From: Minisyncoccota bacterium
GTDB taxonomy: Bacteria > Patescibacteriota > Minisyncoccia > Phycocordibacterales > BOKC01
Length of the DNA stretch: 64,000 nucleotides
Assembly (NCBI GenBank): GCA_030583745.1
Contig: CP129473.1
Span: 204,551-268,550, forward strand
Direction of reading: 5' to 3'
Part shown: positions 9,275 to 34,710 of the stretch, piece by piece
Layout: the number at the start of each line of letters is the position of its first letter
Numbering within the stretch: position 1 is the stretch's first letter
Translations under genes and position numbers: made by a program
Notes under the pieces: generated by a model
The model's input: the letters and a program-made list of their open reading frames with translations, nothing else
Told to the model about the DNA's origin: nothing
Database searches by the model: none

Positions 9275-10216
9275 ATGGACAGAAACCTAGCATTAGAATT
9301 TGTAAGAGTAACGGAAGCGGCGGCTATCGCCGCCGCTCGCTGGATTGGTAGAGGAGATAAGAAAAAAGCCGACGGGGCGGCGGTTGATGAAATGCGCGAC
9401 CGGTTTAATCAGATTAATTTTGCCGGACGAATTGTCATCGGCGAAGGACAAAAAGACGAAGCGCCGGAGCTTTACATAGGCGAAAAAGTCGGCAGAGGAA
9501 AAAGCCCAATAATGGATATTGCTGTTGACCCCTTGGAATGCACGGCAAGTGTTGCTTATGGCCGACCAAATGCAATGTCGGTCATTTGCTCTGGCCCAAA
9601 AGAGTCTCTCCTTTCAGCACCAGACACTTATATGGAAAAAATCGTCGCGGGGCCAAAAGTAGCAAAGCTAATTCGTCTAGACGCGCCGGTTAAAATAAAT
9701 ATAGAGAAAACCGCCAAAGTTCTCGGTAAAAAAGTAAGAGACATCACGGTAGTGGTCTTAGACAAACCGAGACATGAGAGCTTAATAAACCAAATCAGGA
9801 AAGCCGGCGCGCGAGTTCGCCTTATAACAGACGGTGATGTTTCCGGAAGTATTGCAACTTGTATACCTGAATCTGGAATTGACCTGCTTATGGGCACTGG
9901 GGGCAGTGCCGAAGCGGTTTTGTCAACTACAGCAATAAAAACCTTTGGTGGCCAAATTTTTTGCCGATTTAATCCACCAAACGAACATCATAAAAATCTT
10001 TTAAAAAAATCTGGTTTAAACACAAAGAAAATTTATTCAGCAAATGATTTAGCGAAAGGCAAAGTGCTAACTTTCACCGCCACTGGAGTTATTGACGGGC
10101 CGCTTCTAAAGGGTGTTCGCTTTGCCGGAGATAAAATTATTACCCATTCAATAGTCATACGCAGTCAGTCGGGAACAGTTAGGTATATCACGACAGAGCA
10201 TAGGTTAAATAAATAA
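9275..10216 (+). CDS. glpX: fructose-1,6-bisphosphatase class II
   Basis: 313 aa; the N-terminal LALEFVRVTEAAAIAAARWIGRGDKK...DEMR and the rest match the GlpX family. Confidence 0.9.
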   Translation: MDRNLALEFVRVTEAAAIAAARWIGRGDKKKADGAAVDEMRDRFNQINFAGRIVIGEGQKDEAPELYIGEKVGRGKSPIMDIAVDPLECTASVAYGRPNAMSVICSGPKESLLSAPDTYMEKIVAGPKVAKLIRLDAPVKINIEKTAKVLGKKVRDITVVVLDKPRHESLINQIRKAGARVRLITDGDVSGSIATCIPESGIDLLMGTGGSAEAVLSTTAIKTFGGQIFCRFNPPNEHHKNLLKKSGLNTKKIYSANDLAKGKVLTFTATGVIDGPLLKGVRFAGDKIITHSIVIRSQSGTVRYITTEHRLNK

Positions 10217-10263
10217 CAAGTAACTTGTAACTTATAACAAAAACCAACTATTTAAATAGATTT

Positions 10264-10272
10264 TGATATAAT
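10264..10272 (+). promoter_or_regulatory. extended -10 promoter TGaTATAAT 7 nt upstream of the fba start codon (leaderless transcript predicted)
   Basis: ttttgatataatt immediately before ATG 10280 with no SD. Confidence 0.4.
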
Positions 10273-10279
10273 TTATGAA

Positions 10280-11326
10280 ATGAAAAATATAAAAGAACTA
10301 AACGAAATCGCAAAGCAGATGGTTGCGCCGGGGAAGGGAATTCTGGCGGCTGATGAAAGCACCGACACGATTGGAAAACGTTTCAGTGCCATAAATCTGG
10401 AAAATACCGAAGAAAACAGAAGAGCTTATCGCGAGCTTCTTTTTACAACACCTGATATCGGAAAATATATTTCCGGTGTGATTATGTATGACGAAACTAT
10501 TCACCAAAAAACAGAAGGTAAAAATAGCTTTGTTTCGGTTTTACAAAATGAAGGAGTGTTGCCAGGAATAAAAGTTGACCATGGGACTATCCCAGACCCG
10601 AACTCGCCTGATGAAAAAATTACCAAAGGATTGGAGGGCTTGTCGGAACGACTAAAAGAATATGCCTCTATTGGTGCAAAATTTGCCAAGTGGCGCACTG
10701 TTATAACAATTAACAAAAATTATTCGCAAACTGATGGATTGCCGACCGAAGAAAATCTAAAAATAACTGCTAGAGATTTAGCTCAATATGCCAAATACTG
10801 CCAAGAAGCGGGAATTGTGCCCATTGTTGAGCCGGAAGTTTTAATGGATGGTAGTCATAAAATAGAAAAATGTGAAGAAGTTACAGAGAAGACTTTAAAT
10901 TATCTTTTTGAAGAGTTAAATAAAGTCAAAGTACAAATTGAAGGAATAATTTTAAAACCTAATATGATTGTCCCCGGAAAGAATTCGGGACAAAAAACTT
11001 CGCCGGAAGAAGTTGCCAAAGCTACGATAAGTTTATTTAAGAAAGTTTTACCTGAAAATCTCCCTGGCATTGTTTTTCTCTCCGGCGGACAAAGTGAAGT
11101 TGAAGCAACCGAAAATTTAAATGCTATGAATCAAATTAAGGATTTGCCGTGGCGCTTGAGTTTCTCTTATGGCCGAGCCCTTCAAGAAAGCACTTTAAAA
11201 ACTTGGGCTGGTAAAAAAGAAAATGTTCCAGAAGCTCAAAAAGTTTTTCTCCACCGCTCTAAAATGAACTCTCTGGCAACTCTTGGCAAATATTCTCTGA
11301 CTTTGGAAGAAGAAGGTATTGCTTAA
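10280..11326 (+). CDS. fba: fructose-bisphosphate aldolase, class I
   Basis: 348 aa with the GILAADESTDTIGKRF class I aldolase signature. Confidence 0.9.
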   Translation: MKNIKELNEIAKQMVAPGKGILAADESTDTIGKRFSAINLENTEENRRAYRELLFTTPDIGKYISGVIMYDETIHQKTEGKNSFVSVLQNEGVLPGIKVDHGTIPDPNSPDEKITKGLEGLSERLKEYASIGAKFAKWRTVITINKNYSQTDGLPTEENLKITARDLAQYAKYCQEAGIVPIVEPEVLMDGSHKIEKCEEVTEKTLNYLFEELNKVKVQIEGIILKPNMIVPGKNSGQKTSPEEVAKATISLFKKVLPENLPGIVFLSGGQSEVEATENLNAMNQIKDLPWRLSFSYGRALQESTLKTWAGKKENVPEAQKVFLHRSKMNSLATLGKYSLTLEEEGIA

Positions 11327-20953: not shown

Positions 20954-21353
20954 AATGGAAAGTTTTATTCTAAAAATTCAAAATAATATCTGGTATTCGA
21001 TTATAATGGTTTCCCTAGCATTTTTTAGTATCGGGTTGTTGTCTTACGAACTTTTTTATCCGGGAGTGACAGAACGCGGTCATTTTCTGGCCAGAACTAC
21101 TGACCTGATAATCGCCTACATATTTCTAGCTGATTTTTTCGCCGGACTTATTTTTACAAAAGGCCTAAAAGGTCGGGGAGTTTATTTAAAAAACAACTGG
21201 CTCAATTTAGCTTCTTCTATCCCAATCACAAATGATTTCGCCAGGACTTTCCGCCTATTGCGGGTTTTTAGAGCACTTCGCATCATCAGAGCTTTTATGA
21301 ATTTAGAATTTGCCGAACAAAGACAAAAAACGGTCAACAAAAATCACAAGTAA
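20940..21353 (+). CDS. standalone voltage-sensor-domain (S1-S4) membrane protein
   Basis: Four predicted TM segments. The last, RLLRVFRALRIIRAF, carries Arg at every third position (S4-like). Overlaps the ATPase stop; alternative start ATG at 20955. Confidence 0.5.
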   Translation: MFRYKMESFILKIQNNIWYSIIMVSLAFFSIGLLSYELFYPGVTERGHFLARTTDLIIAYIFLADFFAGLIFTKGLKGRGVYLKNNWLNLASSIPITNDFARTFRLLRVFRALRIIRAFMNLEFAEQRQKTVNKNHK

Positions 21354-21465
21354 GATCAATAAAAAAATCTTGTCTGAAGATACATCCCATGCTATAAATG
21401 TCCCCAGAAAAGGCGGATTGTCCGCTTTTGTTTTGCACACCTGTTCCTTGAAAAGGAAATAAGCG

Positions 21466-22536
21466 ATGACAACAATGACGCGTAAGTTTGACATTTCGAA
21501 CCCTTTTGGTGCCGTCTGGGGAGCTTCGGGAGTTCAGGGATTCTTCGGGGAGGGATATCCTTTTCACTCCATACTCAAAAGATTCTGTCCGGGCTTTTTG
21601 CTTCGGATATCCTTTGTGGCGAAAACTGCCACTCTCGACTCAAGACCGGGAAATATGCCTCTTAGCGGCATCACTCCGACAGAACGTTTACCGAAATGTG
21701 TTTGGGCAAGCCACCGGAAGGGGATTGCCTTAAACGCCGTCGGACTCTCGAACCCGGGGCTGGAAGCTCTTCTACTCGGAAAGTTCAAAGGTGTTCCGCA
21801 GACATGGCAAGAAAGAGACAAGCCCTTCCAGATTTCGATCATGTCCACAGCTCAAACCTCCGAAGCTCGACTTCGGGAGACAAAAGACATGTTGGGCTTG
21901 ATCGGCAGATGCGCTACGGACTTCCAATCCGAATTCGGAATTCAAATCAACATCTCGTGTCCGAACGTCAGCATGAGCCACCGCTCAAATGAGGACACGG
22001 TGAATGAGACTCTGGCAACTCTTGACCTCGCTAAAGATAGCGCGCCTGGAATCAGGATCATCGTGAAGCTCTCACCGACTTTCCCGCCGGAGTCCGTTCA
22101 TCAAATTTCCCGACACCCAGCTTGCTGGGGTATCGTCATGGGCAATACAGTCCCGTGGCGAAGTCCAATCCCGTGGCTCCTTGAAGAATCTGGGTTACAA
22201 ATCAACTGGGATGATCTCTTTGGCAAGGATGAAAAGTCACCACTTCAAAAGCGTGGCTTAACGCAAGCTGGTGGGCTGTCAGGCAGACCGCTTCTGCCAA
22301 TCATCTGCGAATGGATTCAGCGAGCGCGCGGGTCTGGAGTTCAATGTCACCTGAACGGCGGAGGAGGAATCCTCCACCCGAAAGATGTGTGCCGGGTCTT
22401 TGACGCTGGCGCTGATTCTATCTCTCTCGGTTCAATCGCCTTCCTCCGCCCGTGGCGTTTGGCAGAGTGTATCACCGAGTCGCATCTTAAGATGTTGAGG
22501 CGTTTTTTCGAACATGGACATGGAGCAACTGACTGA
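21466..22536 (+). CDS. dihydroorotate dehydrogenase-like (PyrD family) TIM-barrel flavoenzyme
   Basis: ALNAVGLSNPGLEAL, QINISCPNV, GGLSGRPL and GGGGI...AGAD motifs of the DHODH/DHPDH family; GC-rich. Confidence 0.7.
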   Translation: MTTMTRKFDISNPFGAVWGASGVQGFFGEGYPFHSILKRFCPGFLLRISFVAKTATLDSRPGNMPLSGITPTERLPKCVWASHRKGIALNAVGLSNPGLEALLLGKFKGVPQTWQERDKPFQISIMSTAQTSEARLRETKDMLGLIGRCATDFQSEFGIQINISCPNVSMSHRSNEDTVNETLATLDLAKDSAPGIRIIVKLSPTFPPESVHQISRHPACWGIVMGNTVPWRSPIPWLLEESGLQINWDDLFGKDEKSPLQKRGLTQAGGLSGRPLLPIICEWIQRARGSGVQCHLNGGGGILHPKDVCRVFDAGADSISLGSIAFLRPWRLAECITESHLKMLRRFFEHGHGATD

Positions 22537-22546
22537 CGAGACGTTG

Positions 22547-22576
22547 CCCCCGCTCTGATATCTATCAGAGCGGGGG
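22547..22576. terminator. 14-bp perfect GC hairpin between the pyrD-like and pyrC-like genes (no U-tract on + strand)
   Basis: cccccgctctgata tc tatcagagcggggg. Confidence 0.5.
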
Positions 22577-22612
22577 CGGAAAAAAACGACACACCAAAAA
22601 GAAGGGGTTAGA

Positions 22613-23665
22613 ATGGTAACCAAAAAAATTGATGTTCCTCCACTCGTTGACATGCATGTCCACCTGCGGGAAGGAGCGGGTCTGATCAAAGACCTTCTCC
22701 AACTCCACGTCGCTGGAGGTGCAGATGTCCTTGGCATGATGCCAAATACCACGGAAGGTCTGACAACTGCAAAAGCGGTGCACGACTACCACAAACAAGT
22801 AGTCAATCTCATGATCGGACCGGAAAGGCAGATTACTCCAGTTCCGTTTCTGATGATTACGCCCGAGACGACCACCGACGACATAAGGAGGGCAGCTTCA
22901 GAAGAGATCAGGAATGCGAAGCTCTACCCCTTGGGACGGACAACAAATTCCAACAGGGGTATCCGAGACTACGCCAAACTCCTGCCAATAATCAGAATGT
23001 GTGGGGAACTTGATGTGTTCTGTCACTTCCATCCAGAGCATCCTGACATGCTCTTTGACAACAGAGACGCCGAGTACGTCTTCCTTCCTCTCGTTGACAT
23101 CTTCCTACGCGAAACCAACGCCAAGATCGTCTGGGAACACGGCACTGACGCGCGTTGCATCCCGTTCTGGATAGATATGGCAGGCACCCACAGATTCTTC
23201 GTCACCCTAACTGCTCATCACCTCGCGACAGACGAAGATGATGTCTTCGGCGACGTGCGTGCTATCTGCAAACCACCGATCAAAACCAGACGAGACTGTG
23301 CCGATCTCCGAGCGCTGGTTGCCAAAAATTACTCTTGGGTGATGGCCGGCACTGACAGTGCTCCACATCCAAGAAAATCCAAACATGTCTCGGATGGCAG
23401 ATGCGCTTGTGGCGCTTTCACTGCACCTTTTGCCTTACCTCTCTACGCTCACGCTCTAAATGACTTGCTCCAAACTCCGGAAGGGGTAGAGGCCTTCGTC
23501 AATTTCACGAGCCGCAACGCTCGAAGTGTTCACAGATTGCCAACAACAACCAGAACGCGAGCTCTCGTCTGTGAACCTTTCAAGGTTCCGGATCAATACG
23601 AGGTTGGAGACTGGTCAATCGAACCGTTCTGGGCTGGTCAGAAAATCAGATGGACACTCATCTAA
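22613..23665 (+). CDS. dihydroorotase-like (class II PyrC type) amidohydrolase
   Basis: VDMHVHLREG, KLYP and GTDSAPH motifs shared with E. coli-type PyrC; GC-rich; terminator 23700-23745. Confidence 0.7.
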   Translation: MVTKKIDVPPLVDMHVHLREGAGLIKDLLQLHVAGGADVLGMMPNTTEGLTTAKAVHDYHKQVVNLMIGPERQITPVPFLMITPETTTDDIRRAASEEIRNAKLYPLGRTTNSNRGIRDYAKLLPIIRMCGELDVFCHFHPEHPDMLFDNRDAEYVFLPLVDIFLRETNAKIVWEHGTDARCIPFWIDMAGTHRFFVTLTAHHLATDEDDVFGDVRAICKPPIKTRRDCADLRALVAKNYSWVMAGTDSAPHPRKSKHVSDGRCACGAFTAPFALPLYAHALNDLLQTPEGVEAFVNFTSRNARSVHRLPTTTRTRALVCEPFKVPDQYEVGDWSIEPFWAGQKIRWTLI

Positions 23666-23954
23666 CGACGACTCGTTGATTAATTCATCGCTTGATCCTT
23701 ACCCAGCTCCGCTGATCCCAGCGGAGCTGTTTTCTTTTTTCAAAAAATAAGTAAAATATTGATTATTAAATAGGGGGCCCTTAGCCCCTCACATGCAAAA
23801 GAATATGTACTATGTCTAAGCATTGAAAAGTGAGAAAGATAATAGTATATACATAGGGTACACAAATAATCTGAAAAGGCGCTTGGTAGAGCATAACGAT
23901 AAGAAAAATCTATCAAACAAACACAAAGCACCTTTTCAGCTTATTTATTACGAA

Positions 23955-25571
23955 TCATATAAATCTCAAAAGGATTCGTAATAGTTTAAGCATGTGAGGG
24001 GCCATTAGCTCATTTGGTAGAGCGCGCCCATGGCATGGGCGAGGCGACCGGTTCGAATCCGGTATGGTCCACCCGATTGAATTTCCCCGCAAAAATGCGT
24101 CCGCGCTCCGCGCGGTGATGGGAAGTTCGGCAAGAAAAGAAAAGGGCGTTTTGAAATCCACGGAGAGCGCGCTTGCGCGCAAATGGCGGTTCGAGCCGAT
24201 GGTTTTCAAAAAAGTTTTCATTTCCTCAAACTTTTTTGAAGAAGCGAGATTTTGTGCTTGGTTGGCTTGTAAAATCCAGTTTCGCACGAGTTCGAGCCAA
24301 TGATTTCCTTTTCGCTCAAAATCAGATAATTTTTCCTCTAGCGTTTTCTTTTCCGACATCAAAGCGTTCTTTTTCTGTTGAAACTCCGACAACTCAAAAC
24401 CGCCATCCAAGTATCCATCCATGAGGCGGTCAATCTTTGCTTTGATGTCAGAAATAGAAGAACGCAGATTTTGAGCGAAAACTCCCGATGATTGGCGGTT
24501 CTCTTGTTCCCATAGGGCGAGCTTGCCGAGATATTTGTCTCGCCATTCATCGGGCAAAGAAACCTTTTGACAAAGTTCCTGCACTTGTCGTTCAAATTCT
24601 TCTTCCCGCAAAAATTTATTTTCAGAACATTTAGCAATTTTGCTCTTGTGGGTACAGCGATAGTAAATAAACTGCAAACCACTTTTTTTGATATGTCTTT
24701 CGGCAGTTATCGCATAGCCACATTCCCCACAAGTAGCAAAATTTAGAAACTGAAAATTCTTTTTCTTTTGATTTTTGCGGGGTTTTCCATTTGCGACAAG
24801 TGCCTCCTGTATCTTGTCAAAAAGTTTCTTTGAAATCATTGGCTTGTGCGAACCTTGATGCACTTCGCCTCGGTAAGAAAAATATCCATAGTAAAAAGGA
24901 TTTTTCAAAATATGTTCTACCGAGGCGAGTGCGAAAGGTTTGCCAGATCGTGCGCCAACCAAGCCAAGAGAAAACATTTTGCGTTGAATAGCCGTGAGTG
25001 TATATTCGCCAGTGCTAAAAAGCTCCAATACTTCTTTTATTTTACGAAACGTCTTTTTGTCTGGTTCAATCGTTCGAAGTCGCGGTTCGTTAAAATAACC
25101 GATTGGAGCTTTTGCCGATAATTCACCACGGCGTATCTTTTGCCGTATCCCACGCAAAATGTTTTCTCTTAAATTGTCGGTGTAATATTTTGCTTGTCCG
25201 AAAGCGACACTCAACATAAATTTTCCTTGGGGTGTCGCTTCGAACCAAAATGTCGGGAATTTTAGCGCAACAATTTTTAGCGTGTCCACAAAATATATGA
25301 CCTTGCCACCATCAATGCTATTTCTCGCCAAACGGTCTGGATTCCACGCTAAAATTCCCGAGGCAGAACCTTTTTCAATTTCGCCAAGCATTTCGTTAAA
25401 TACTTCACGACCAGGCTCTTTGGCCGTTTTACTTTCATAATACTCACGAACAACAAATAACCCATTTTGCTTGGCGTATTCCCGAAGCTCATGAAGTTGC
25501 GCCTCAATACTCAAAACTTGGCGTTCTTCGTCCTCACTTGATTTTCTACAATATATAAAATATTTGATCAT
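23955..25571 (-). CDS. large serine recombinase (resolvase/integrase family with recombinase domain and zinc ribbon)
   Basis: N-terminal YCRKSSEDEERQ...SIEAQ catalytic-Ser motif, recombinase domain, CGECG...C zinc ribbon and a coiled-coil tail. The ORF has no stop until it has read through IR1-L and the antisense of tRNA-Ala, so the true C-terminus is uncertain. Confidence 0.8.
   Translation of the reverse strand: MIKYFIYCRKSSEDEERQVLSIEAQLHELREYAKQNGLFVVREYYESKTAKEPGREVFNEMLGEIEKGSASGILAWNPDRLARNSIDGGKVIYFVDTLKIVALKFPTFWFEATPQGKFMLSVAFGQAKYYTDNLRENILRGIRQKIRRGELSAKAPIGYFNEPRLRTIEPDKKTFRKIKEVLELFSTGEYTLTAIQRKMFSLGLVGARSGKPFALASVEHILKNPFYYGYFSYRGEVHQGSHKPMISKKLFDKIQEALVANGKPRKNQKKKNFQFLNFATCGECGYAITAERHIKKSGLQFIYYRCTHKSKIAKCSENKFLREEEFERQVQELCQKVSLPDEWRDKYLGKLALWEQENRQSSGVFAQNLRSSISDIKAKIDRLMDGYLDGGFELSEFQQKKNALMSEKKTLEEKLSDFERKGNHWLELVRNWILQANQAQNLASSKKFEEMKTFLKTIGSNRHLRASALSVDFKTPFSFLAELPITARSADAFLRGNSIGWTIPDSNRSPRPCHGRALPNELMAPHMLKLLRILLRFI
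23999..24071 (+). tRNA. tRNA-Ala (anticodon GGC), CCA not encoded
   Basis: GGGCCAT acceptor with G3:U70, anticodon stem CGCCC/GGGCG with loop ATGGCAT, T-loop TTCGAAT. Confidence 0.8.
24069..24192. repeat. IR1-L: 124-bp arm, perfect inverted copy of 25690-25813
   Basis: Base-by-base reverse-complement identity read from the sequence; begins within the last 3 nt of the tRNA. Confidence 0.9.
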
Positions 25572-25689
25572 GAGCTTCGGGGATTAAATTGATAAAAGGT
25601 TTTGCATTACACCGACAATTTCTAAATCTCGCTTCTCATCGGCTCCTCGGGTATTCCCGAGAATGAGGCAAAATTTATTTTGGCTCATG

Positions 25690-25813
25690 GAACCGCCATT
25701 TGCGCGCAAGCGCGCTCTCCGTGGATTTCAAAACGCCCTTTTCTTTTCTTGCCGAACTTCCCATCACCGCGCGGAGCGCGGACGCATTTTTGCGGGGAAA
25801 TTCAATCGGGTGG
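25690..25813. repeat. IR1-R: 124-bp arm, inverted copy of 24069-24192
   Basis: Direct comparison; ends in tcgggtgg, overlapping the start of IR2-L by the 5-nt GGTGG. Confidence 0.9.
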
Positions 25814-26071
25814 TGTCTTTTAAACAAAGTCCGAACTTTTTACGAACAAAATCCTGATGCCGACTAATCGCACGCTCCGCGCGCGTGGTGGCTCGAAACT
25901 ACCTCGTACGCTCTAAACAATGGACTCGGTTTTGCGGAAGCAATTTTCTGGGGATATGGTTTCCGCAAAACCTCGACTACTTTCGGATTTCGCAAGCGGA
26001 GGAGGAGGGGTCTGGGGAGGAATCCTCCGCTTGCTCCATCCGTTTTCTTTTGGCGAAATTCGGGGCGGACA
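25809..26071. repeat. IR2-L: 263-bp arm, perfect inverted copy of 31037-31299
   Basis: Direct comparison; GC-rich and hairpin-rich (ttgcggaa..ttccgcaa, gcaagcggagga..tcctccgcttgc). Confidence 0.9.
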
Positions 26072-26129
26072 TCACCCTATTACATTATACTATAATATTG
26101 GTGTATAATGTAAATGAAAGTGCTATGAT

Positions 26130-26342
26130 GTGGATATGAAAAGCGAGTCCGCGAAGTTAGGCAAAAACCTAAAGCGTATCCGAACGGAGAAAGGGATAAC
26201 ACAGGGCGATATTGTGCGAACACTCGGCGTTAGCCGAAGTTTTGTGAGCAATATTGAGAATGGAAAAACAAATCCTACACTTTCAACCATTACCAGTATT
26301 GCCAAAGCGCTTGGTGTTTCGAGCGATGAATTGTTAAAATAG
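26130..26342 (+). CDS. XRE-family HTH regulator (R-M controller C-protein candidate)
   Basis: 70 aa with LKRIRTEKGITQGDIVRTLGVSRSFVSNIENGK HTH; sits directly upstream of the MTase. Confidence 0.7.
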   Translation: MDMKSESAKLGKNLKRIRTEKGITQGDIVRTLGVSRSFVSNIENGKTNPTLSTITSIAKALGVSSDELLK

Positions 26343-26346
26343 ACTT

Positions 26347-27303
26347 ATGACAAAAAATCAAGCAATTTTAGAACTTAAAAAGACTTTTGATATAAATGAG
26401 ATTTATGCCCATAGAGTTTTTTTACTTGCAGACAAAACAAAATTTATTGAGGATGCCTCTCGTATTATTGCAGAAAAACCAAAACCATTTGTGAAATGGG
26501 TCGGTGGTAAAAGACAACTTTTAGCACAATTTCGCTTGATGAATCTTTATCCGCCAGAAAGATTTGATACAAAAAACGGGAGATATTTTGAACCATTCGT
26601 AGGTGGCGGGGCAGTATTTTTTGATCTACTTCCTGTAACAGCTTTTCTTTCCGATTTAAACAATGAACTTGTTGTAACCTACAATGTGATTAAAAATGAT
26701 GTTGAAAATTTAATAAAATCACTTAAAAAACATAAATTAGACAAGGAATATTTTCTAAAAATAAGGGCACAAAATCCAGAAAAACTTTCCGATTTAAATA
26801 TAGCTTCTCGTTTTATTTATCTAAATAGAACTTGTTTCAATGGAATGTACCGCGTGAATAGTAAGGGTGGATTTAATGTTCCCTTTGGAAAATACACAAA
26901 CCCTCTTGTTTGCGATGAAAATAATCTTAGAAAAGTATCAAAAGCATTGAAAAATGTTGAGATAAAAAAACAGGATTATAAAGAAGTGCTTAAAAAAGCA
27001 AAAAAGGGAGATTTTGTTTATTTTGATCCACCATATTATCCAATAAGCAAAACTGCTTCATTTACTTCTTACACCAGTGAATCATTTTTAGATAAAGAAC
27101 AAATTGAATTGAGAGATACATTTGTAGAATTACACAAACGAGGTTGCTTTGTTATGCTTTCAAATTCTGATACTCCATTCATAAACAAAATTTATTCTGA
27201 ACCAAAAGGTCTCCGTATTACAAAGGTACAAGCAGGTCGTGCCATTAACTCTGACGCTTCAAAGAGAGGAAAAATCACGGAGGTACTGGTAACTAATTAC
27301 TAA
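26347..27303 (+). CDS. Dam-family N6-adenine DNA methyltransferase (DpnM/M.MboIA-like)
   Basis: KWVGGKRQLL SAM/target motif near the N-terminus and a FDPPYYP catalytic motif. Confidence 0.85.
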   Translation: MTKNQAILELKKTFDINEIYAHRVFLLADKTKFIEDASRIIAEKPKPFVKWVGGKRQLLAQFRLMNLYPPERFDTKNGRYFEPFVGGGAVFFDLLPVTAFLSDLNNELVVTYNVIKNDVENLIKSLKKHKLDKEYFLKIRAQNPEKLSDLNIASRFIYLNRTCFNGMYRVNSKGGFNVPFGKYTNPLVCDENNLRKVSKALKNVEIKKQDYKEVLKKAKKGDFVYFDPPYYPISKTASFTSYTSESFLDKEQIELRDTFVELHKRGCFVMLSNSDTPFINKIYSEPKGLRITKVQAGRAINSDASKRGKITEVLVTNY

Positions 27304-27309
27304 TACAAT

Positions 27310-28167
27310 ATGCAAAAAGATTTTAATAATTTAATAACAACTTTCAAAAACTCAATTAAAACATGGGATTACTTTGTGAACTGGAAAAAGGTTTTTGGTA
27401 ATTCTTCTAATCTCGAAATTACTTTAAACAAACTAAACTATCTCTTGGGTAAGGAGAATTTAAAAGATGAATTTAAAAAACTCTATAGCTCAAATCCAGA
27501 TATTGTAAAAGCATTACCTGTACTTTTGGCAGTTAGAGAAAATAAGCTAGAAGTTTTTGATAAAGTTACCAAAAATTCTGAATTCTTTGATTTTTCTGGT
27601 ACAGAAAAGGATTCAGAAAAGTACTATGAATTTTTAGAAAAATCTGGACTTGCCCGTCTATTTCAAAAAGATGGGGTAAAAAATTTGGTTGATTATGTTA
27701 TGGGCATTGAAGTTGGTCTTGATAGTAATGGTCGTAAGAATCGTGGAGGATCTTTGATGGAAGAAATTGTAGAATCATTTATTAGTGAGCTTTGTAATAA
27801 AAATGGCTTTGAATACTTATCGCAAGCACGAGCAACTACAATAAAAAGTAAGTGGGGCGTAGATGTAAAAGTTGATAAATCAGAACGCAGTTTTGATTTT
27901 GCTGTGTTCAATCCTAAAAACAAAAAAGTTAAATTGTTTGAAGTAAATTTCTATAATGGTGGTGGCTCGAAACTCAAAGCGGTATGCGGAGAATTTAAAA
28001 GCTTATATACAGAACTCAAAGATCAAAATATAGATTTTATATGGATAACCGATGGGCTTGGTTGGTTTACAACAAAAAGACCTCTCGAAGAAACATATAA
28101 TCATAATGAATATGTTTTTAACTTAAACATGCTTGAAGCTGGCGTTTTGGATAAACTCGTATGGTAA
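27310..28167 (+). CDS. DpnII/MboI-family type II restriction endonuclease
   Basis: 285 aa; GIEVGLDSNGRKNRGG and the N-terminal TWDYFVNWKKVF resemble the DpnII (dpnB) family; M1-R-M2 order as in MboI. Confidence 0.7.
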   Translation: MQKDFNNLITTFKNSIKTWDYFVNWKKVFGNSSNLEITLNKLNYLLGKENLKDEFKKLYSSNPDIVKALPVLLAVRENKLEVFDKVTKNSEFFDFSGTEKDSEKYYEFLEKSGLARLFQKDGVKNLVDYVMGIEVGLDSNGRKNRGGSLMEEIVESFISELCNKNGFEYLSQARATTIKSKWGVDVKVDKSERSFDFAVFNPKNKKVKLFEVNFYNGGGSKLKAVCGEFKSLYTELKDQNIDFIWITDGLGWFTTKRPLEETYNHNEYVFNLNMLEAGVLDKLVW

Positions 28168-28171
28168 ATAT

Positions 28172-28915
28172 ATGTCAGATATTAAACTGCACCCTGAAGA
28201 ATTTGAATTAGAATGTACAACCGTATGGGCTTTTCCTCGCAGGGGAAACTGGGCTACGCATAAATCTGACTGGCGTGGAAATTGGTCGCCCGAAGTAGCT
28301 CGCAATCTTATTTTAAGATATTCAAAAGAGAAAGATCATTTACTAGACTGCATGATTGGTGGAGGCACTACGGCAATAGAAGCAAAAATTTTAAATCGTC
28401 ACATTACTTGCGTTGATGTTAATGAAGAAGCTTTAGAGCGAACAAAAAAATCGCTTGAATTTGAAGTTGATAATAAATCAAAACAGCGTGTAGTGAAATG
28501 CGATGCGAGAAATATGAGTTTCATTAAAGATAATGAGATAGATTTTGTCTTAACTCATCCTCCGTATGCAGATATTATAAAATATAGTGAAGGTAAAATT
28601 AAAGAAGATTTGTCAGAAATACACGATATAGACGCTTTTGTTGATGAAATAGAGAAAGTTGCAAAGGAATTATTTAGAGTATTAAAGAAAGGAAAATATT
28701 GTGCAATTTTGATGGGAGATACTCGAAGAAATAGAATGTATCAACCTCTTGCATTTAAAGTTATGCAAAAGTTTTTAGATGTAGGCTTTGTTTTAAAAGA
28801 GGACATAATAAAAAGACAGTTTAATTGTAAGGCGACAGGTTTTTGGGTCGCAAAATCAAAAGAATCAAATTTCCTATTGATAATGCATGAGCACCTTTTT
28901 GTGTTTCAGAAATAA
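28172..28915 (+). CDS. second DNA methyltransferase of the cassette (DpnA/M.MboIC-like, beta-class amino-MTase)
   Basis: LTHPPYADII catalytic motif and GGGTTAIEA SAM motif. Start chosen at ATG 28172; the ORF track starts at 28133. Confidence 0.75.
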   Translation: MSDIKLHPEEFELECTTVWAFPRRGNWATHKSDWRGNWSPEVARNLILRYSKEKDHLLDCMIGGGTTAIEAKILNRHITCVDVNEEALERTKKSLEFEVDNKSKQRVVKCDARNMSFIKDNEIDFVLTHPPYADIIKYSEGKIKEDLSEIHDIDAFVDEIEKVAKELFRVLKKGKYCAILMGDTRRNRMYQPLAFKVMQKFLDVGFVLKEDIIKRQFNCKATGFWVAKSKESNFLLIMHEHLFVFQK

Positions 28916-28962
28916 TTTAATAAATTATTGATATTCGGAGTTAAAAATGCTAGAATGCCACT

Positions 28963-29994
28963 ATGTCAAAAGTAGAACTTATAAAGAAAATCGAAGCAAA
29001 AAGAGGATCAAAAGTCATTACCTATGTGACAAGTGATAGGCAAGGACCTGTAAATGCCCGTGTTGCTATGGATATTATTCCAATAGTTAGCGAACAGCTT
29101 CGTAAAATTGGCACGAAAGTTCCTAAAATTGACCTTTTTCTTTACACAGCAGGCGGAGATACCATGGTTCCGTGGCGTTTAGTTTCTATGATACGAGAAT
29201 ATTGTGATACTTTCTCTGTTCTTGTTCCTTATAAGGCACACAGTGCTGGAACAATGATTGCTTTAGGCGCTGATGAAATAGTAATGAGCGATCTTTCAGA
29301 AATCTCACCGATTGACCCTTCAACCGCAAATGTTTTTAATCCATCAGACCCAACAAACCCGCAAAATAAAATTCCTATTTCTGTTGAGGATGTTATCGCA
29401 TACTTTGATTTGGCAAAAAATAAATTTGGTATTAAGAGCGATGAAGACCTGACAAAGATTTTTAATAAGTTTATGGAATCAAATCCTCAAATTCACCCGC
29501 TTGCTCTGGGTAATGTAAATCGCACACACAATCTTATACGATTGCTAGCCAAAAGATTACTCAAGAGCCATAAAGAGCCGATGAAAGAAGATCAGATTGA
29601 AAAAATCGTTGAGGCATTTACCGAAAAACTATACTCGCACATGTATTTTATAGGTAGAAAGGAAGCTAAAGAAGAGTTAAATGTGAAATCAATCGTCTAT
29701 GCTGATGCTGAACTTTCTGAACTTATGTCTAAACTTTATTCTGAATACGCGAACGAAATGGAATTGCAAAATACAGTTTGGAATCCAGAAAATGAAATCG
29801 GGATGAATGCAAGTCAAAACAAAAAAGAATACAAAGTAGCTTTTGTAGAAAGCGCAGTGCTTCCAAAGGCTTATGGGCTAACAATGGAGTTTAAACGTCA
29901 GCAAGTAATGGTTCCTCAGCAAACTCCGCAAGGAATTATTCAAGTTCCACAAGAACAAGTTGCGATGAGAGTTGTAGGGCAAGGTTGGAAGTAA
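28963..29994 (+). CDS. SDH/ClpP-fold serine peptidase-like protein (S49/SDH family candidate)
   Basis: LFLYTAGGDTMVPWRLV, AHSAGTMIALGADEIVM and SPIDP resemble the Ser-dehydrogenase-proteinase/SppA Clp-fold motifs. Confidence 0.45.
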   Translation: MSKVELIKKIEAKRGSKVITYVTSDRQGPVNARVAMDIIPIVSEQLRKIGTKVPKIDLFLYTAGGDTMVPWRLVSMIREYCDTFSVLVPYKAHSAGTMIALGADEIVMSDLSEISPIDPSTANVFNPSDPTNPQNKIPISVEDVIAYFDLAKNKFGIKSDEDLTKIFNKFMESNPQIHPLALGNVNRTHNLIRLLAKRLLKSHKEPMKEDQIEKIVEAFTEKLYSHMYFIGRKEAKEELNVKSIVYADAELSELMSKLYSEYANEMELQNTVWNPENEIGMNASQNKKEYKVAFVESAVLPKAYGLTMEFKRQQVMVPQQTPQGIIQVPQEQVAMRVVGQGWK

Positions 29995-29996
29995 AA

Positions 29997-30446
29997 CTAA
30001 TTTCCATCACCCAAGAAACGCTGTGGAATTCCTAGAAATCTTAATACGCCAGATAGTTTAGTTTGAGTTTTATTTAAGATAACAAGAACAAAATTTTTAT
30101 TCTCCCGCAAGGCATTTAGTGCAAACCATATCAATCCTTTCTCTGAAAAATTAAGTTCCGAAAGTTGTGCCTCTTCTACTGAAAAATTCGGCAATACAGC
30201 ATATTGATTTGTTGGGAGCATTCCTGTTGTGGAAATAAGACCAGAATTTGAAAGGGTATTTTCAATATCCCTCATAGACTTGGTGTGGGTAGTTTCTGTT
30301 ATACATTCAACGCTTACGATTGTTTCTGATTGACCTATTGTGGCTTCCGAAAAAGACAAGGTGATCGCAGCTATTTCACTCTGTTCTGCAAAAACTCCAG
30401 TTGCAAAAGCATTTTCTTTGGTTGTTAGGAATAAATTATTTTCCAT
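29997..30446 (-). CDS. hypothetical protein (island cargo)
   Basis: 149-aa ORF convergent with the protease gene. Confidence 0.35.
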   Translation of the reverse strand: MENNLFLTTKENAFATGVFAEQSEIAAITLSFSEATIGQSETIVSVECITETTHTKSMRDIENTLSNSGLISTTGMLPTNQYAVLPNFSVEEAQLSELNFSEKGLIWFALNALRENKNFVLVILNKTQTKLSGVLRFLGIPQRFLGDGN

Positions 30447-30590
30447 TTCTAGATTTTAACATAACGGATAGGCAGATGCAAATTTTTCAAAAATTTAGTT
30501 TAGGGAGTCCCGCTCGCACCCCCTCTTCTCCTCTGCGAGCGGGCTTGCGCGCGAACGGGAGGGTGGGTCAAGCGCATTTGCATTCTGCCT

Positions 30591-30948
30591 CGGGTATTTC
30601 CGCTAGGAGCGTCCAGGGCTAAAGGACGAGCGCCGACGAAATAAGAATCTCTAAAATCTAAAGTTAAGATAAACTCGGATATGAAAACGAGGAAGGGGGT
30701 TGTGCAAGGGCGGACTCCGAAGGCACGTTAAACGAAGCCACAAAGCTCTACATAAAAAGAAAAGAAATAAAGCACTGAATACTCTAGTTAACCACTGCGA
30801 GGAGGAGACCGAAGCTGGGGGAAGGATTCCTTCCTTCCCCCAAACAGCGTCCTGCCCTCGCTCCCGCTCCGCAGAGCGGTAGAGCGAGGAATAGCAGGAC
30901 ACAAAGTAGTCTAGGCGCTCGTAGCCCTAGCGGAAATATCCGAGGCGA
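30591..30948. repeat. GC-rich structured element bounded by imperfect 20-35-bp inverted repeats (MITE or ncRNA-like)
   Basis: cctcgggtatttccgctagg at 30591-30610 versus cctagcggaaatatccgagg at 30929-30948; internal nested hairpin at 30849-30900 (gtcctgc/cctcgctc/ccgctc...). Confidence 0.6.
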
Positions 30949-31036
30949 ATGCCGAGGGCTTATCTCCTTTAGACTTGGACAACCACTAGCAGAGAAATAG
31001 CCGAGACAATTTTATGGTATGATGTATTTGCATTTT

Positions 31037-31299
31037 TGTCCGCCCCGAATTTCGCCAAAAGAAAACGGATGGAGCAAGCGGAGGATTCCTCCCCAGACCC
31101 CTCCTCCTCCGCTTGCGAAATCCGAAAGTAGTCGAGGTTTTGCGGAAACCATATCCCCAGAAAATTGCTTCCGCAAAACCGAGTCCATTGTTTAGAGCGT
31201 ACGAGGTAGTTTCGAGCCACCACGCGCGCGGAGCGTGCGATTAGTCGGCATCAGGATTTTGTTCGTAAAAAGTTCGGACTTTGTTTAAAAGACACCACC
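31037..31299. repeat. IR2-R: 263-bp arm, inverted copy of 25809-26071
   Basis: Direct comparison; ends in gacaccacc. Confidence 0.9.
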
Positions 31300-31387
31300 A
31301 TTCCGAATTTGAAGAAAGATTGACCTCACCCGCGCCAAAGGCGCGGGCTCGGGCTGATGTTTCTGTTGATGAGTTTTTGAAATAGCT

Positions 31388-32044
31388 ATGGATAATAAAA
31401 TTCAAAAAATTGTATATTTTATCCGCCACGGACAGAGTAAAGACAATGTTGCTCCGGTTTTTCAGTCGCCAGACTCGCCTTTGAATGAGAAAGGTAAAAG
31501 ACAAGCAGAAAGTATCGCACAAAGAGTTTCTAGACTTTCGTTCGATGCGCTTATTGCGAGTCCGTTTGAACGAGCGAAACAGACAACAGAAGCGATTGCA
31601 AAAGTCACAGGCAAAAAAGCAGAATATTCCGACCTCTTTGTTGAGCGGGTCAAGCCGAGCTACATCAATGGCAAACCTTATACAGACGAAAAGGCAAATA
31701 ATCTTTGGCGAGAGTGGGAAAAGAGTTTATATACACCCAATATGCGTGCCGAGGACGGCGAAAACTTTGACGACCTTATCGCGCGAGCAGACAAGGCTCT
31801 CACTTTTCTGAAAAACAGAACTGAAAAATCGCTTGTTGTCGTAACGCACGGATATTTTCTACGAACGATTGTTGCGCGTGTTCTGCTCGGCGATTTACTT
31901 TCAGGCGAGGCATTTAGAAATATACAGAGAACAGCGGCTATGGAAAATACTGGACTTACTGTTTTGCAATACCGCGAGGGCTTTGAAGAAAAACCAGCAT
32001 GGCGTTTATGGATATACAATGACCATGCACATTTAGCTGATTAA
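31388..32044 (+). CDS. histidine phosphatase family protein (phosphoglycerate-mutase-like)
   Basis: IRHGQS catalytic motif near the N-terminus. Confidence 0.75.
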   Translation: MDNKIQKIVYFIRHGQSKDNVAPVFQSPDSPLNEKGKRQAESIAQRVSRLSFDALIASPFERAKQTTEAIAKVTGKKAEYSDLFVERVKPSYINGKPYTDEKANNLWREWEKSLYTPNMRAEDGENFDDLIARADKALTFLKNRTEKSLVVVTHGYFLRTIVARVLLGDLLSGEAFRNIQRTAAMENTGLTVLQYREGFEEKPAWRLWIYNDHAHLAD

Positions 32045-32048
32045 ACTT

Positions 32049-32372
32049 ATGGAAACAAAAAATGTAAAATTCGTTGTCTTCGTTCCACTCTCTCACGCTG
32101 ATATTGTGCGCCAAGCTCTCGGCGAAGCCGGAGCTGGGAAAATTGGAAACTATGACTTCTGCTCTTTTTCTTCTCGTGGCACTGGGCGTTTTCGTGGAAA
32201 CGAAAAGACCAGTCCTGCTATTGGGAAAGCTGAAAATTATGAGGCGGTAGAAGAAGAAAGAATTGAAGCTATTGTGCCACGAGCAATTTTGAAAGAAGTC
32301 GTTGAAAAAGTAAAAGCGATTCACCCATACGAGGAAGTTGCCTTTGATATTTATCCATTGGAAACATTATGA
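32049..32372 (+). CDS. PII/CutA-fold small protein (COG3323-like, Nif3-insert-type domain)
   Basis: VKFVVFVP...GAGKIGNYDFCSF..GTGRFRG...HPYEEVAFDIYPLE pattern. Confidence 0.45.
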   Translation: METKNVKFVVFVPLSHADIVRQALGEAGAGKIGNYDFCSFSSRGTGRFRGNEKTSPAIGKAENYEAVEEERIEAIVPRAILKEVVEKVKAIHPYEEVAFDIYPLETL

Positions 32373-32950
32373 ATATTTTAATTTTCGGGGACAGCATAAC
32401 TTGGGGCGCATACGATCCAGAGCAAGGCGGCTGGGCTACTCGCCTACGAAATTATTTTGAAGCACAAGACAACGATATTGATGTTTACAATCTTGGTATT
32501 TCTGGCGACACCACAGCCGACTTGCTCGAACGAATTGAAGTGGAAGCGAAATCGCGCGAGCCGAACTTGATAATTTTTGCTATTGGAATCAATGATGCGC
32601 AGTATATCCATTCTACAAACGGCTTGCGCGTTTCGCTTGATGAATTTCAACAAAATCTCGCAAAACTTTTTTCTATCGCCAAGAAATTTACCAGTGAGGT
32701 TGTATTCGTTGGTCTAACGCGGGTAGATGAATCAAAAACCACCCCCATCCCGTGGAACACTGACAAATCCTATACCAACGAAAACATCGAGCGACTTGAT
32801 AGCGCGATTGAGAAGTTTTGCAAGGACAACAAGCTGAAATTCATCCCAATGGAAAGCGTCGTCGAAAACGACGACCTTATTGACGGACTTCATCCGAATA
32901 CTGTAGGTCATACCAAAATGTTTGAAAGGATAAAGTCCGAAATTAAATAG
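32369..32950 (+). CDS. SGNH/GDSL hydrolase family protein
   Basis: N-terminal ILIFGDSITWG block and a C-terminal DGLHPN block. Confidence 0.75.
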   Translation: MNILIFGDSITWGAYDPEQGGWATRLRNYFEAQDNDIDVYNLGISGDTTADLLERIEVEAKSREPNLIIFAIGINDAQYIHSTNGLRVSLDEFQQNLAKLFSIAKKFTSEVVFVGLTRVDESKTTPIPWNTDKSYTNENIERLDSAIEKFCKDNKLKFIPMESVVENDDLIDGLHPNTVGHTKMFERIKSEIK

Positions 32951-32983
32951 CCGCCAATTTTTTCAAAAAAGAAAGCCGAAGCC

Positions 32984-33071
32984 CACGCGGATTCCTCCCC
33001 GAGACCTCGCTCCTCCGCGTGGGCAAGTCCGTCGCCCCGCCTCCTTTGCCCCAGAAAAATAGTGGCGGGGC
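32984..33071. repeat. two GC-rich hairpins of the GGAGGAATCC repeat family between convergent genes; bidirectional terminator candidates
   Basis: cccacgcggattcctcccc...ctcctccgcgtggg and cgccccgcc...ggcggggcg. Confidence 0.6.
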
Positions 33072-33176
33072 GCATCAGAAGTTCCGTTCAAAAAAAGTTC
33101 GAGCAAATACTAGAATAACACTACCAAACAAAACTTGTTCAGAATTAAAGAAGCGGAGCGATTTTGCGGGAGCCGC

Positions 33177-34541
33177 CTAAACAGCGGAGTTTTGTTTCTT
33201 CAATAACTTAGTCAAGATTGAAGGAACAACAAGAGTAGTCAAAATAACCATAATAACTATCACCGAGAAAATAGAATCAGAAATAACCCCGAGCGACAAA
33301 CCGATCGAGGCAAAAATCAAGCCAACCTCACCGCGTGGCACCATACCCCAACCAACAAGCATCCGACTACCTTTTTCAGCCGCCAAACCAGCCATAATTT
33401 TACCGACAAAAGCAATCACGGTTATCGCTAAAGCGACCAAAAGTATTTTAGTGTCAAAAAGAGTCTCAAGTCTAACCCCCATTCCAACCATAATGAAAAA
33501 AATAGGGACTAAAAAGTGGGCGATTGGTTCCATCAATTCTTCAACATGCCGATGAGCATGAGTGTGTATATTTTCTGAAATCTTATTTTTCAACTCACTT
33601 TCGGGAGCGTTTTCAATCGCTTTTTTCATGTCATCAACAATCAAGGGATCTTTAAATGATTTGAAATGCACCGGGTCCAAAACCAAGCCGGCTGCAAAAG
33701 CGCCGATAATCGGCGCCAAACCAATCTGATTGGCAGCGTAGGCAAAAAACAAACAAAAACCGAAAGCTAAAGAAAATTTCATGCTGACTCCATTATGGAT
33801 TTTTGAAAACATCCGACCAATATACGGAGCAGAAATCTGACCAACAACAATAGAACCAATTAAAAACAAAATGGCCTTGGCGATAATCCAAGAGATAACT
33901 CCGAGCGATACCGCGCCCACGGTTGCTATAGCAGAAATCACTGCCAAGATAATCAGGCCCAATACGTCGTCTATAACAGCTGCACCTAAAACTACTTGGG
34001 CGGCTGGTAATTGTAATTTACCCAAATCCTTAAAAACCCTGGCAGTAATACCAACAGAAGTAGCAGTCAAAGCGGCGCCCAAGAAAAGATAGGCAATAGT
34101 TGGTTGTCCGGGCAAAAGCAGAGGACCGGCAAAATAAGTTCCAAGAACAAATGGCAAGACGACACCGATAACCGCCACAGCAAAAGCTCTGACCCCAACT
34201 TTTTTCATCTTCTGGATATTAGATTCAAGACCAACTTGGAAAAGGAGTATCACAACGCCAAGTTCTGCCAAAAATTTTATTATTCCGTTTTCTTTTATCG
34301 GTTCAAAGATGGTTATACCCAAAAGAACCAAGTTTCCCAGAACAACACCCATCACAAGTTCACCCAAGACTGACGGTTGACCAAACTTCTCAACCATAGC
34401 TGAAACTTTAGCGGCGACCAAAATAACAGCGATCATTAAAAAAACAACAGTAATTTCTCCATTCCCGGCAGCAGCCAAAGAAACAAGTGGGAAGAGAAGC
34501 AAAAGCAAAGGCAGGGCTAAAAATAAAGGTATTTTCTTCAT
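33177..34541 (-). CDS. cation:proton antiporter (CPA family, Na+/H+ exchanger-like)
   Basis: 454 aa with about 12 TMs and Na_H_Exchanger-type motifs. Confidence 0.8.
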   Translation of the reverse strand: MKKIPLFLALPLLLLLFPLVSLAAAGNGEITVVFLMIAVILVAAKVSAMVEKFGQPSVLGELVMGVVLGNLVLLGITIFEPIKENGIIKFLAELGVVILLFQVGLESNIQKMKKVGVRAFAVAVIGVVLPFVLGTYFAGPLLLPGQPTIAYLFLGAALTATSVGITARVFKDLGKLQLPAAQVVLGAAVIDDVLGLIILAVISAIATVGAVSLGVISWIIAKAILFLIGSIVVGQISAPYIGRMFSKIHNGVSMKFSLAFGFCLFFAYAANQIGLAPIIGAFAAGLVLDPVHFKSFKDPLIVDDMKKAIENAPESELKNKISENIHTHAHRHVEELMEPIAHFLVPIFFIMVGMGVRLETLFDTKILLVALAITVIAFVGKIMAGLAAEKGSRMLVGWGMVPRGEVGLIFASIGLSLGVISDSIFSVIVIMVILTTLVVPSILTKLLKKQNSAV

Positions 34542-34710
34542 AAAAATTAAATAAAAAAGAAGCGTGACGCCCTTTTATCTGTTATTATCTGTCGTGTTTG
34601 TCGAACACAACAACAGCAATCTTACACGATTTCCAAAAAAATAAAATCTTGACTGTGGATAAACCAGAAAAACAAAAAACAATTTTCCTTATGACTGGTA
34701 TAATTCAGTA

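Follow-up and report, generated by a model that had tools for sequence, protein, structure and literature searches.

The closest described relatives of the locus presented here are the DpnII system of Streptococcus pneumoniae and the type II genes of the Lactococcus plasmid pSRQ700, which we take to be the characterized GATC system LlaDCHI (LlaII). These systems comprise a DpnM-type methyltransferase (M1), a beta-class methyltransferase (DpnA, in the position M2) and a DpnII-family endonuclease (R), encoded on mobile DNA in a compact three-enzyme operon of the order M1-M2-R. In the MboI system of Moraxella bovis, which also targets GATC, the genes mboA, mboB and mboC encode a methyltransferase, an endonuclease and a second methyltransferase, and M.MboC is DpnA/HinfI-like. 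A restriction-modification (R-M) operon with a DpnM-type methyltransferase, a DpnII-family endonuclease and a similarly compact three-enzyme core on mobile DNA was observed at positions 26130-28915 of a 64,000-nt stretch from a Minisyncoccota bacterium (GenBank assembly GCA_030583745.1, contig CP129473.1, positions 204,551 to 268,550; hereafter the window). Unlike DpnII and LlaDCHI, it shows the order M1-R-M2, lacks a beta-class DpnA enzyme and has an additional gene for a helix-turn-helix (HTH) regulator upstream. The source is a Candidatus Paceibacterota metagenome-assembled genome (MAG) represented by a 691,769-bp contig and thus a very small genome, as an earlier interpretation made without database searches (the sequence-only reading) had assumed.

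As judged from reading frames and profile matches, the segment very probably represents an intact four-gene DpnII-family type II R-M operon. All four open reading frames (ORFs) named by the sequence-only reading were recovered intact on the plus strand in the order HTH-M1-R-M2 (Table 1), with spacers of 4, 6 and 4 nt if M2 starts at 28172, the ATG at which a separate gene prediction for an identical contig begins M2 (247 aa). The sequence motifs quoted in that reading are also present in the proteins, and the profile search placed the third gene product in a nuclease family. M1 scored above the cut-off of the NCBIfam model TIGR00571 dam (5.8e-87), has DpnM as its closest solved relative (PDB 2dpm, 3.3e-70) and carries the motifs FVGGG (aa 84) and DPPY (aa 227). 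R spans positions 1-277 of the 278 positions of the Pfam DpnII profile and matches the PADLOC profile REase_II (4.1e-99), and M2 matches the PADLOC type II methyltransferase profile MTase_II over its full length (3e-91). Furthermore, M1 is 44% identical to M.LlaDCHI-A, and R is 40% identical to R.LlaDCHI over 286 aa. Accordingly named functions would be methylation of adenine in GATC on double-stranded DNA by M1 and cleavage of unmethylated GATC by R. The base composition of the cassette had been described as host-like; this did not hold, since its GC content is 0.32 (0.31-0.34 for M1, R and M2) versus 0.41 in the remaining window. The operon itself adds little to current knowledge: DpnII-family systems are well known, and the genes are already named 'DNA adenine methylase', 'type II restriction endonuclease' and 'class I SAM-dependent methyltransferase' in GenBank.

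The DNA carrying the operon is an island at the tRNA-Ala(ggc) gene. Contig L085, originating from another sequencing run, matches window positions 19251-23785 at 99.9% and then the tRNA-Ala gene at 100%, from where it runs straight into window positions 33123-34556 (98%) and hence represents the empty site. Since L085 joins the tRNA gene directly to position 33123, the segment 24074-33122 is an insertion at the tRNA-Ala 3' end. This contig, together with the large serine recombinase (LSR) gene located at the attL edge, proves the earlier assumption that the cassette is island cargo. The junctions have only ACC in common, which, together with the adjacent LSR gene, fits insertion by a serine recombinase. 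A tRNA island of the tyrosine-integrase type was ruled out, as no long direct repeat beyond the common ACC is present. In the integrated state, the LSR ORF extends across the tRNA gene to position 23955; after excision, its last codons would be NSIG and a stop just past the junction. Weak NCBIfam matches of the LSR were to XisF, CcrB and CcrA. The LSR ORF (23955-25571) has no GenBank protein accession, the numbering passing from WKZ26691 directly to WKZ26692 (the HTH protein); it is intact here but crosses the tRNA gene, and this crossing may be why it was dropped or marked as a pseudogene.

Within the island, the LSR gene is bracketed by the inverted repeat X/X' and the cargo by the inverted repeat Y/Y' (Table 1). 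X' and Y abut. In reverse complement, their junction (...AGACACCACC/CGATTG..., the slash marking the junction) corresponds to the outer end of Y' joined to X, and its X side is identical to attL. By its sequence, the X'/Y junction is the attP that excision of 24074-31299 would recreate. Corresponding sites were found in locus L161, in which attL reads tRNA-Asp...CTCCGCCA/ATTTTCAC, the internal copy ...AACACCGCCA/ATTTTCAC and attR ...AACACCGC/ACTAG. Beyond Y', the window continues with ATTCCGAATTTG..., the remnant of an older LSR 3' end. Moreover, a third, diverged copy of Y is located at 32966-33091 on the minus strand beside attR (covariance model R1, 71.1 bits, E 2.4e-20), and the entire segment 31300-33122 is missing from the empty-site contig. 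The 9-kb island is composed of two tandem elements, namely a newer one of approximately 7.2 kb (24074-31299; LSR and R-M cassette) followed by an older, decayed one (31300-33122). A repeat of 100-200 nt bracketing the LSR gene, with arms approximately 1.46-1.5 kb apart (1.64 kb in L104), was detected in seven further loci, and five of these have a tRNA gene (for Ser, Asp or Ala) directly adjoining the 3' end of the LSR gene. A transposon origin of the repeats was rejected: their flanks are inverted and not direct, so that no target-site duplication was seen, and the model of att copies fits better. An assembly artefact was ruled out as well, since the layout recurs across many independent assemblies.

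Two further observations concern these repeats. On the element side, the arm of attP is similar to the T-arm and the acceptor end of the targeted tRNA (25814-25850 and 33090-33122 in the window; 4290-4347 in L161), with GTTCGGAC...ACCACC corresponding to GGTTCGAATCC...GTCCACC in tRNA-Ala and, in L161, GTTCGAAC...CCGCCA to tRNA-Asp. Moreover, a second type of inverted repeat (255-265 nt) flanks M1-R-M2 beside a tRNA-Ser gene with no recombinase nearby; it has only the outer block in common with the arm found in the window and is devoid of the hairpins B and C described below.

In an alignment of 59 non-redundant arms, two hairpins, B and C, were observed, featuring covarying stems and fixed loops. 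Paired cells accounted for 89.9% versus 73.5% in shuffles and at most 51% when partners were slid by 1-3 columns. Cells changed on both sides numbered 172 versus 64.7 in shuffles, and the covariation score was 0.353 versus 0.117. G-U pair counts of 23 and 30 by strand revealed no strand preference; since they favor neither strand, hairpin functions at the RNA and the DNA level are not separable. The loop of hairpin C occurs in two copies in the window, with zero expected by chance, and in at least 120 metagenome stretches. It has zero matches in viral contigs, and a phage origin is therefore unsupported. The 120 metagenome stretches containing this loop, a lower bound of the total, are referred to as platform loci. 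Among them, 37 possess an inverted loop pair 1.6-7.8 kb apart and 23 an LSR homologue; within the first 80 platform loci, the LSR gene, where present, is located just outside the arm and is divergent from it. Their cargo includes genes for a type I R-M system, GmrSD, Mrr, C5-methyltransferases and pairs of Res and methyltransferase. Hydrolases, a radical-SAM enzyme, an ABC transporter and further metabolic functions are also encoded.

Replacement of the cargo became apparent from locus L095, which shows 94% nucleotide identity to the window over the LSR gene, X' and Y, stopping exactly at the inner edge of Y. Its cargo is a type I R-M system in place of the DpnII-type cassette. Furthermore, a conserved non-coding block (nc590, see below) lies beside the LSR-proximal arm of L095 and not beside the distal one, and the HTH gene is distal. 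Therefore, elements with the same arms appear to exchange their cargo, and across these different elements the cargo segment is seen in either orientation with respect to the recombinase. The presence of alternative restriction systems at one locus resembles the pneumococcal exchange of DpnI and DpnII cassettes, from which the present case differs in that the flanks are inverted repeats of a mobile element and not chromosomal genes.

It is tentatively proposed, at a level of confidence slightly below even, that Patescibacteria harbor a so far undescribed family of LSR elements of approximately 4-10 kb, inserted at tRNA 3' ends, whose many interchangeable cargos include the R-M operon. These elements would have a 2-micron-like circular form, repeats bearing attP and a cargo that is flipped or exchanged, and nc590 would be a new non-coding RNA or origin. 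We infer that the free form would be a circle in which a recombinase segment and a cargo segment are parted by two copies of the 300-450-nt inverted repeat, each of which would hold an attP core and the two covarying hairpins with invariant loops. Integration via one repeat copy would leave an intact, inverted attP inside the island. Recombination between the repeat copies, presumably driven by the recombinase, would flip or exchange the cargo, and exchange may also take place between different elements sharing repeat arms. The operon would contribute to defense and to retention of the element.

Among known mobile elements, SCCmec/CcrAB cassettes are similar in being small LSR-mobilized islands of variable cargo including R-M systems, in targeting the 3' end of a conserved gene and in tandem accretion. 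In contrast to SCCmec, the present element targets a tRNA 3' end and possesses an internal inverted attP within near-perfect inverted repeats of 300-450 nt with conserved hairpins. We know of no SCC element with an internal inverted attP in hairpin-bearing repeats. The layout is further analogous to that of the yeast 2-micron plasmid (FLP/FRT), in which two unique segments are separated by two inverted repeat copies containing the recombinase site and both relative orientations occur; however, the 2-micron recombinase is a tyrosine recombinase unrelated to the serine enzyme found here, for which circle formation, replication and flipping are predictions. In the literature on LSR elements with inverted repeats in Patescibacteria, this layout is undescribed as far as could be found. 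R-M-bearing genomic islands have been reported for Patescibacteria in a paper that is silent on recombinases, tRNA targets and inverted repeats (PMC12455944).

Table 1. Features of the island and of related loci (window coordinates unless a locus is named; a slash within a sequence or coordinate marks a junction).
Feature	Position	Strand	Evidence and remarks
tRNA-Ala(ggc)	23999-24073	+	ARAGORN and Rfam; integration took place at its 3' end (attB half)
attL	24073/24074		GGTCCACC/CGATTG (ends CCACC/CGATTG)
X	24069-24192		LSR 3' coding end and att core; arm of 124-nt, 100% inverted repeat around LSR
LSR gene	24074-25571	-	Pfam Resolvase 2.5e-20, Recombinase 1.3e-11, Zn_ribbon_recom 5.5e-8
X'	25690-25813		Inverted copy of X; forms, jointly with the beginning of Y, an inverted internal copy of the element attP
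Y	25798-26071		Left arm of 274-nt, 98% inverted repeat around cargo; covariance model R1 25908-26049, 107.5 bits
Hairpin B (in Y)			Loop TTTTCTGGGGATATGG
Hairpin C (in Y)	26003-26023 (loop)		Loop AGGAGGGGTCTGGGGAGGAAT (21 nt)
Candidate operator (C-box-like)	26080-26113		TTACATTATAC-N12-GTATAATGTAA, 34 bp, perfect 11-bp arms
XRE-family HTH regulator, 68-70 aa	26130 (GTG) or 26136 (ATG) to 26342	+	Pfam HTH_3 4.4e-17
M1, DpnM/Dam-type alpha-class N6-adenine methyltransferase, predicted G(m6A)TC	26347-27303	+	Pfam MethyltransfD12 (PF02086) 2.9e-63
R, DpnII-family type IIP endonuclease, predicted GATC	27310-28167	+	Pfam DpnII (PF04556) 6.8e-95
M2, second amino-methyltransferase	28133 (TTG) or 28172 (ATG, preferred) to 28915	+	Pfam N6_N4_Mtase 2.2e-22
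ClpP-like SDH-type serine protease (co-cargo)	28963-29994	+	Pfam SDH_protease 3.8e-15; promoter-like site 28928-28956
Hypothetical 149-aa protein (co-cargo)	29997-30446	-	
nc590, conserved non-coding structured region	30447-31036		Always follows one repeat arm; 23-bp closing stem ~30587-30609 with 30924-30946
Y'	31037-31310		Right cargo arm; R1 match 31059-31200, 107.5 bits; outer end joined to older LSR 3' remnant
Older element remnant	31300-33122		Histidine phosphatase (31388-32044), 107-aa protein, GDSL lipase (32369-32950), diverged Y, attR
attR	33122/33123		AACACTACC/AAACAAAAC (CTACC/AAACAA)
attB			GGTCCACC/AAACAAAAC (CCACC/AAACAA)
Loci with LSR-bracketing repeat	L161, L114, L119, L093, L147, L132, L104		
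Second repeat type	L018 4474-4728 / 10098-10352; L024 3340-3604 / 9932-10196		
nc590 homologues	L003 5174-5633; L095 1908-2321; L167 206-609; L007 5088-5522; L111 5061-5461; L195		
Defense genes inserted in M1-R-M2	L005 2192-3934; L031 4012-5709; L026 4394-6004; L017 4221-5999; L078 5303-6121		

Several results speak against the interpretation of the operon as an active, GATC-specific system headed by a controller protein. Activity and specificity for GATC are predictions from homology at 40-55% identity. A PDB sequence search with R matched zero solved structures. GATC is mildly depleted (148 sites observed versus 222.6 expected, ratio 0.66). The ratios of three other 4-bp palindromes, GGCC (0.64), GTAC (0.58) and TCGA (0.58), are no higher, so that GATC avoidance is uninformative on activity. 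Moreover, the HTH gene precedes M1 and not R, and a consensus scan retrieved zero sigma-70-like promoters upstream of the HTH gene. Finally, weak matches of M2 to RNA-methyltransferase profiles (TIGR01177 and Trm11-like and RsmD-like families) were obtained, and some members of its 90% cluster are annotated as Trm11 tRNA methylase by the Joint Genome Institute (JGI).

The HTH gene had been named a C-protein gene by the sequence-only reading, which also recommended searching for a C-box palindrome upstream of position 26130. Such a palindrome was indeed found as a significant 34-bp inverted repeat (Table 1) that was equaled in 0 of 5000 shuffles, ends 16-22 nt before the HTH start codon and overlaps TATAAT-like hexamers. 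Like the C-protein systems C.AhdI, C.BclI and C.Esp1396I, the locus has a small XRE-HTH gene heading the operon and, over the promoter region of this gene, a palindrome of about 34 bp, which matches known C-operators in size. Differences from these systems are the position before the methyltransferase gene, the occurrence of homologues at the head of non-R-M cassettes on the platform, and the lack of a recognizable GACT/AGTC consensus, which is typical of C-boxes, in the palindrome. In PADLOC, the HTH protein matched Control_protein (2.4e-12) and, better, HTH_VI (1.7e-15); the top-scoring models in both PADLOC and NCBIfam describe generic XRE or antitoxin families. C.BclI (1e-8), C.AhdI (8e-8) and C.Esp1396I are among its top PDB matches, mixed with DdrO, HipB and SinR. 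Across 25500-31500, a scan for sigma-70 promoters and terminators gave counts not above those of shuffles, only the site before the SDH protease gene standing out.

The chances appear evenly balanced that the HTH protein is a regulator belonging to the backbone of the cargo segment, acting at the cassette-entry promoter or as a repressor of the element, and that it stands before M1 incidentally. HTH homologues (33-63% identity) were found in 51 of the 120 platform loci, M1 or R in none of the 120, and most M1-R-M2 operons in other genomes lack the HTH gene; the generic family matches and the position before M1 instead of R point in the same direction. Where mapped, these homologues are usually the first gene inside the arm and read inward, and those near an arm have AT-rich, palindrome-bearing upstream regions of their own. 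Conversely, an HTH gene lies 7-24 nt upstream of M1 in at least seven M1-R-M2 loci, among them L018 and L024, whose repeats are of the different type, and the structural matches to C proteins as well as the size of the palindrome argue for a controller function. Since homologues head non-R-M cassettes on the same platform, the HTH protein is not R-M-specific, and the label 'C-protein' is uncertain. The HTH protein is regarded as a putative C-protein-like autoregulator that is not filed in the C family; it probably binds the 34-bp palindrome at its own promoter and would autoregulate the operon as controller proteins do. The roles as backbone regulator and as controller are not mutually exclusive.

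The second methyltransferase, M2, is by its motif order not of the DpnA (beta-class) type. Motif I (MIGGG, aa 61) precedes the catalytic HPPY (aa 129), i.e., the order is unpermuted, whereas LlaDCHI-B, the DpnA homologue, shows the beta-class order with DPPY at aa 48 and FVGSG at aa 227. The alignment of M2 to LlaDCHI-B covers only 57 aa around motif I, and its match to the solved beta-class enzyme PDB 2zie is circularly permuted. It is because of the position of motif I, the short alignment and the permuted match that a DpnA-like nature is rejected. HPPY is invariant in 120 of the 120 closest M2 homologues and in a 58%-identical Fusobacterium orthologue. A literature search on HPPY methyltransferases turned up nothing relevant; the general motif [DNSH]PP[YFW] admits H as first residue, and unpermuted group-1 methyltransferases have been noted in DpnII systems (PMC4738411). 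With regard to the MboI-type organization claimed by the sequence-only reading, the methyltransferase-endonuclease-methyltransferase order of MboI was found within one operon (gaps of 6 and 4 nt); M2 would belong to another enzyme class than M.MboC.

It is rather unlikely that M2 is an orphan or anti-restriction methyltransferase of other specificity, or an RNA methyltransferase accompanying the operon, instead of a GATC modifier. Its architecture, which is non-homologous to DpnA and LlaDCHI-B, and the RNA-methyltransferase matches and JGI annotations mentioned above would agree with such a role. On the other hand, M2 directly follows R in 29 of the 32 close loci (species-representative genomes with R at least 71% identical). 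M1-R-M2 recurs in approximately 30 Patescibacteria species genomes and is also present in Fusobacterium (the genome of the 58%-identical M2) and in an Ignavibacteriales MAG. The linkage outlasts the insertion of a gene in Fusobacterium and a rearrangement to the order M2-M1-R in an Actinomycetota MAG (L069). In addition, the type II methyltransferase profile fits M2 over its full length, and M2 is under very strong purifying selection. Since M2 adjoins R in these loci and its linkage persists despite insertion and rearrangement, it belongs to the system, of which it is a fixed partner. M2 probably also targets GATC, perhaps on a different kind of substrate, for instance single-stranded or incoming DNA. 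Remoter R homologues (45-50% identity) leave a gene space of approximately 850 nt between M1 and R, corresponding to the DpnII-like order.

Pairwise ratios of nonsynonymous to synonymous divergence (dN/dS), determined against orthologues from 5-6 other genomes, were 0.05-0.14 for M1, 0.03-0.05 for R and 0.02-0.09 for M2. Hence, all three genes are under strong purifying selection. A decayed or silent state of the operon, either methylating only or inactive, is accordingly quite improbable: reduced genomes often hold orphan methyltransferases, and the activity of the operon is deduced from homology, but every ORF is of full length relative to its profile, the dN/dS of R is very low, and an identical R protein was recovered in independent sequencing runs.

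Highly unlikely as well is phase-variable expression by inversion of the repeat-bounded segment, which the sequence-only reading had envisaged in view of the flanking recombinase. In its favor, the cargo lies between 274-nt, 98-100% identical inverted repeats next to the LSR gene, the cargo of L095 is reversed relative to the recombinase on a 94%-identical backbone, and many contigs break inside the arms (short-read unitigs break at repeats). Against it, inversion would carry the candidate operator and the HTH gene with it, together with all R-M genes, and a promoter scan of 25500-31500 found none outside the segment to drive the operon. In addition, the two orientations stem from different elements, cargos and samples and not from one population, and switching off methyltransferase and endonuclease together risks self-restriction, as is established for post-segregational killing.

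Further features were recorded for the cassette in related genomes. Comparing L003 with the window, synonymous divergence (dS) is 0.16 for R and 0.65-0.67 for the flanking genes M1 and M2; this mosaic suggests recent recombination within the operon. Genes encoding GmrSD type IV endonucleases, an AIPR abortive-infection protein and an AAA_15 ATPase are inserted between M1 and R in related genomes (Table 1), and in Fusobacterium a gene for an Mrr-type nuclease is located between R and M2. Cassettes with R 78-89% identical are present in MAGs labelled Dehalococcoidia, Oscillospiraceae and Gammaproteobacteria (L018, L021, L022, L023, L034). Among these, L018 (Dehalococcoidia UBA6803) has real non-Patescibacteria flanks, including genes for acetyl-CoA synthetase and fumarate hydratase; because the flanking genes are genuinely non-Patescibacteria, this cassette looks like a case of cross-phylum transfer rather than mis-binning.

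Downstream of the operon, the non-coding block nc590 was found to be conserved over approximately 450 nt in six other loci (Table 1), directly after the arm and in the same orientation. Its consensus fold contains inner hairpins within the closing stem, with compensatory changes in 13 of 73 predicted pairs, and its folding z-score is approximately -7 versus shuffles, both strands being alike. Rfam searches (gathering threshold for the whole window; E<=1 for 23900-31600) retrieved only tRNAs, leaving the repeat arms and nc590 unmatched. nc590 could be a new structured RNA, an origin or an accessory site for recombination. Regarding the co-cargo, a relative of the SDH protease (343 aa), 86% identical, is encoded beside an LSR gene and M2 in L073 (2505-3521). 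The divergent 149-aa protein has zero matches in Pfam, NCBIfam and PADLOC, and the protease likewise matched no PADLOC defense profile. At the extreme 5' end of the tRNA-Ala gene, a 212-nt insertion (23786-23997) that is missing in L085 was observed. It features the terminal inverted repeats cccctcacatgc and gcatgtgagggg and holds a truncated ORF (23823-23981) resembling a fragment of a GIY-YIG nuclease.

Patescibacteria are thought to depend on DNA uptake, and their versions of DpnII-family systems are dominated by the unpermuted HPPY enzyme and not by DpnA. The vehicle of the operon provides a testable picture of how defense and metabolic cassettes are swapped in ultra-small genomes, resting on mapped attB, attL, attR and attP sites, on structured arms in at least 120 metagenome contigs and on the cassette replacement in L095. 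Moreover, the mapped att sites characterize the LSR as a compact serine integrase that targets a tRNA end and could be tried as a genetic tool for these uncultivated lineages.

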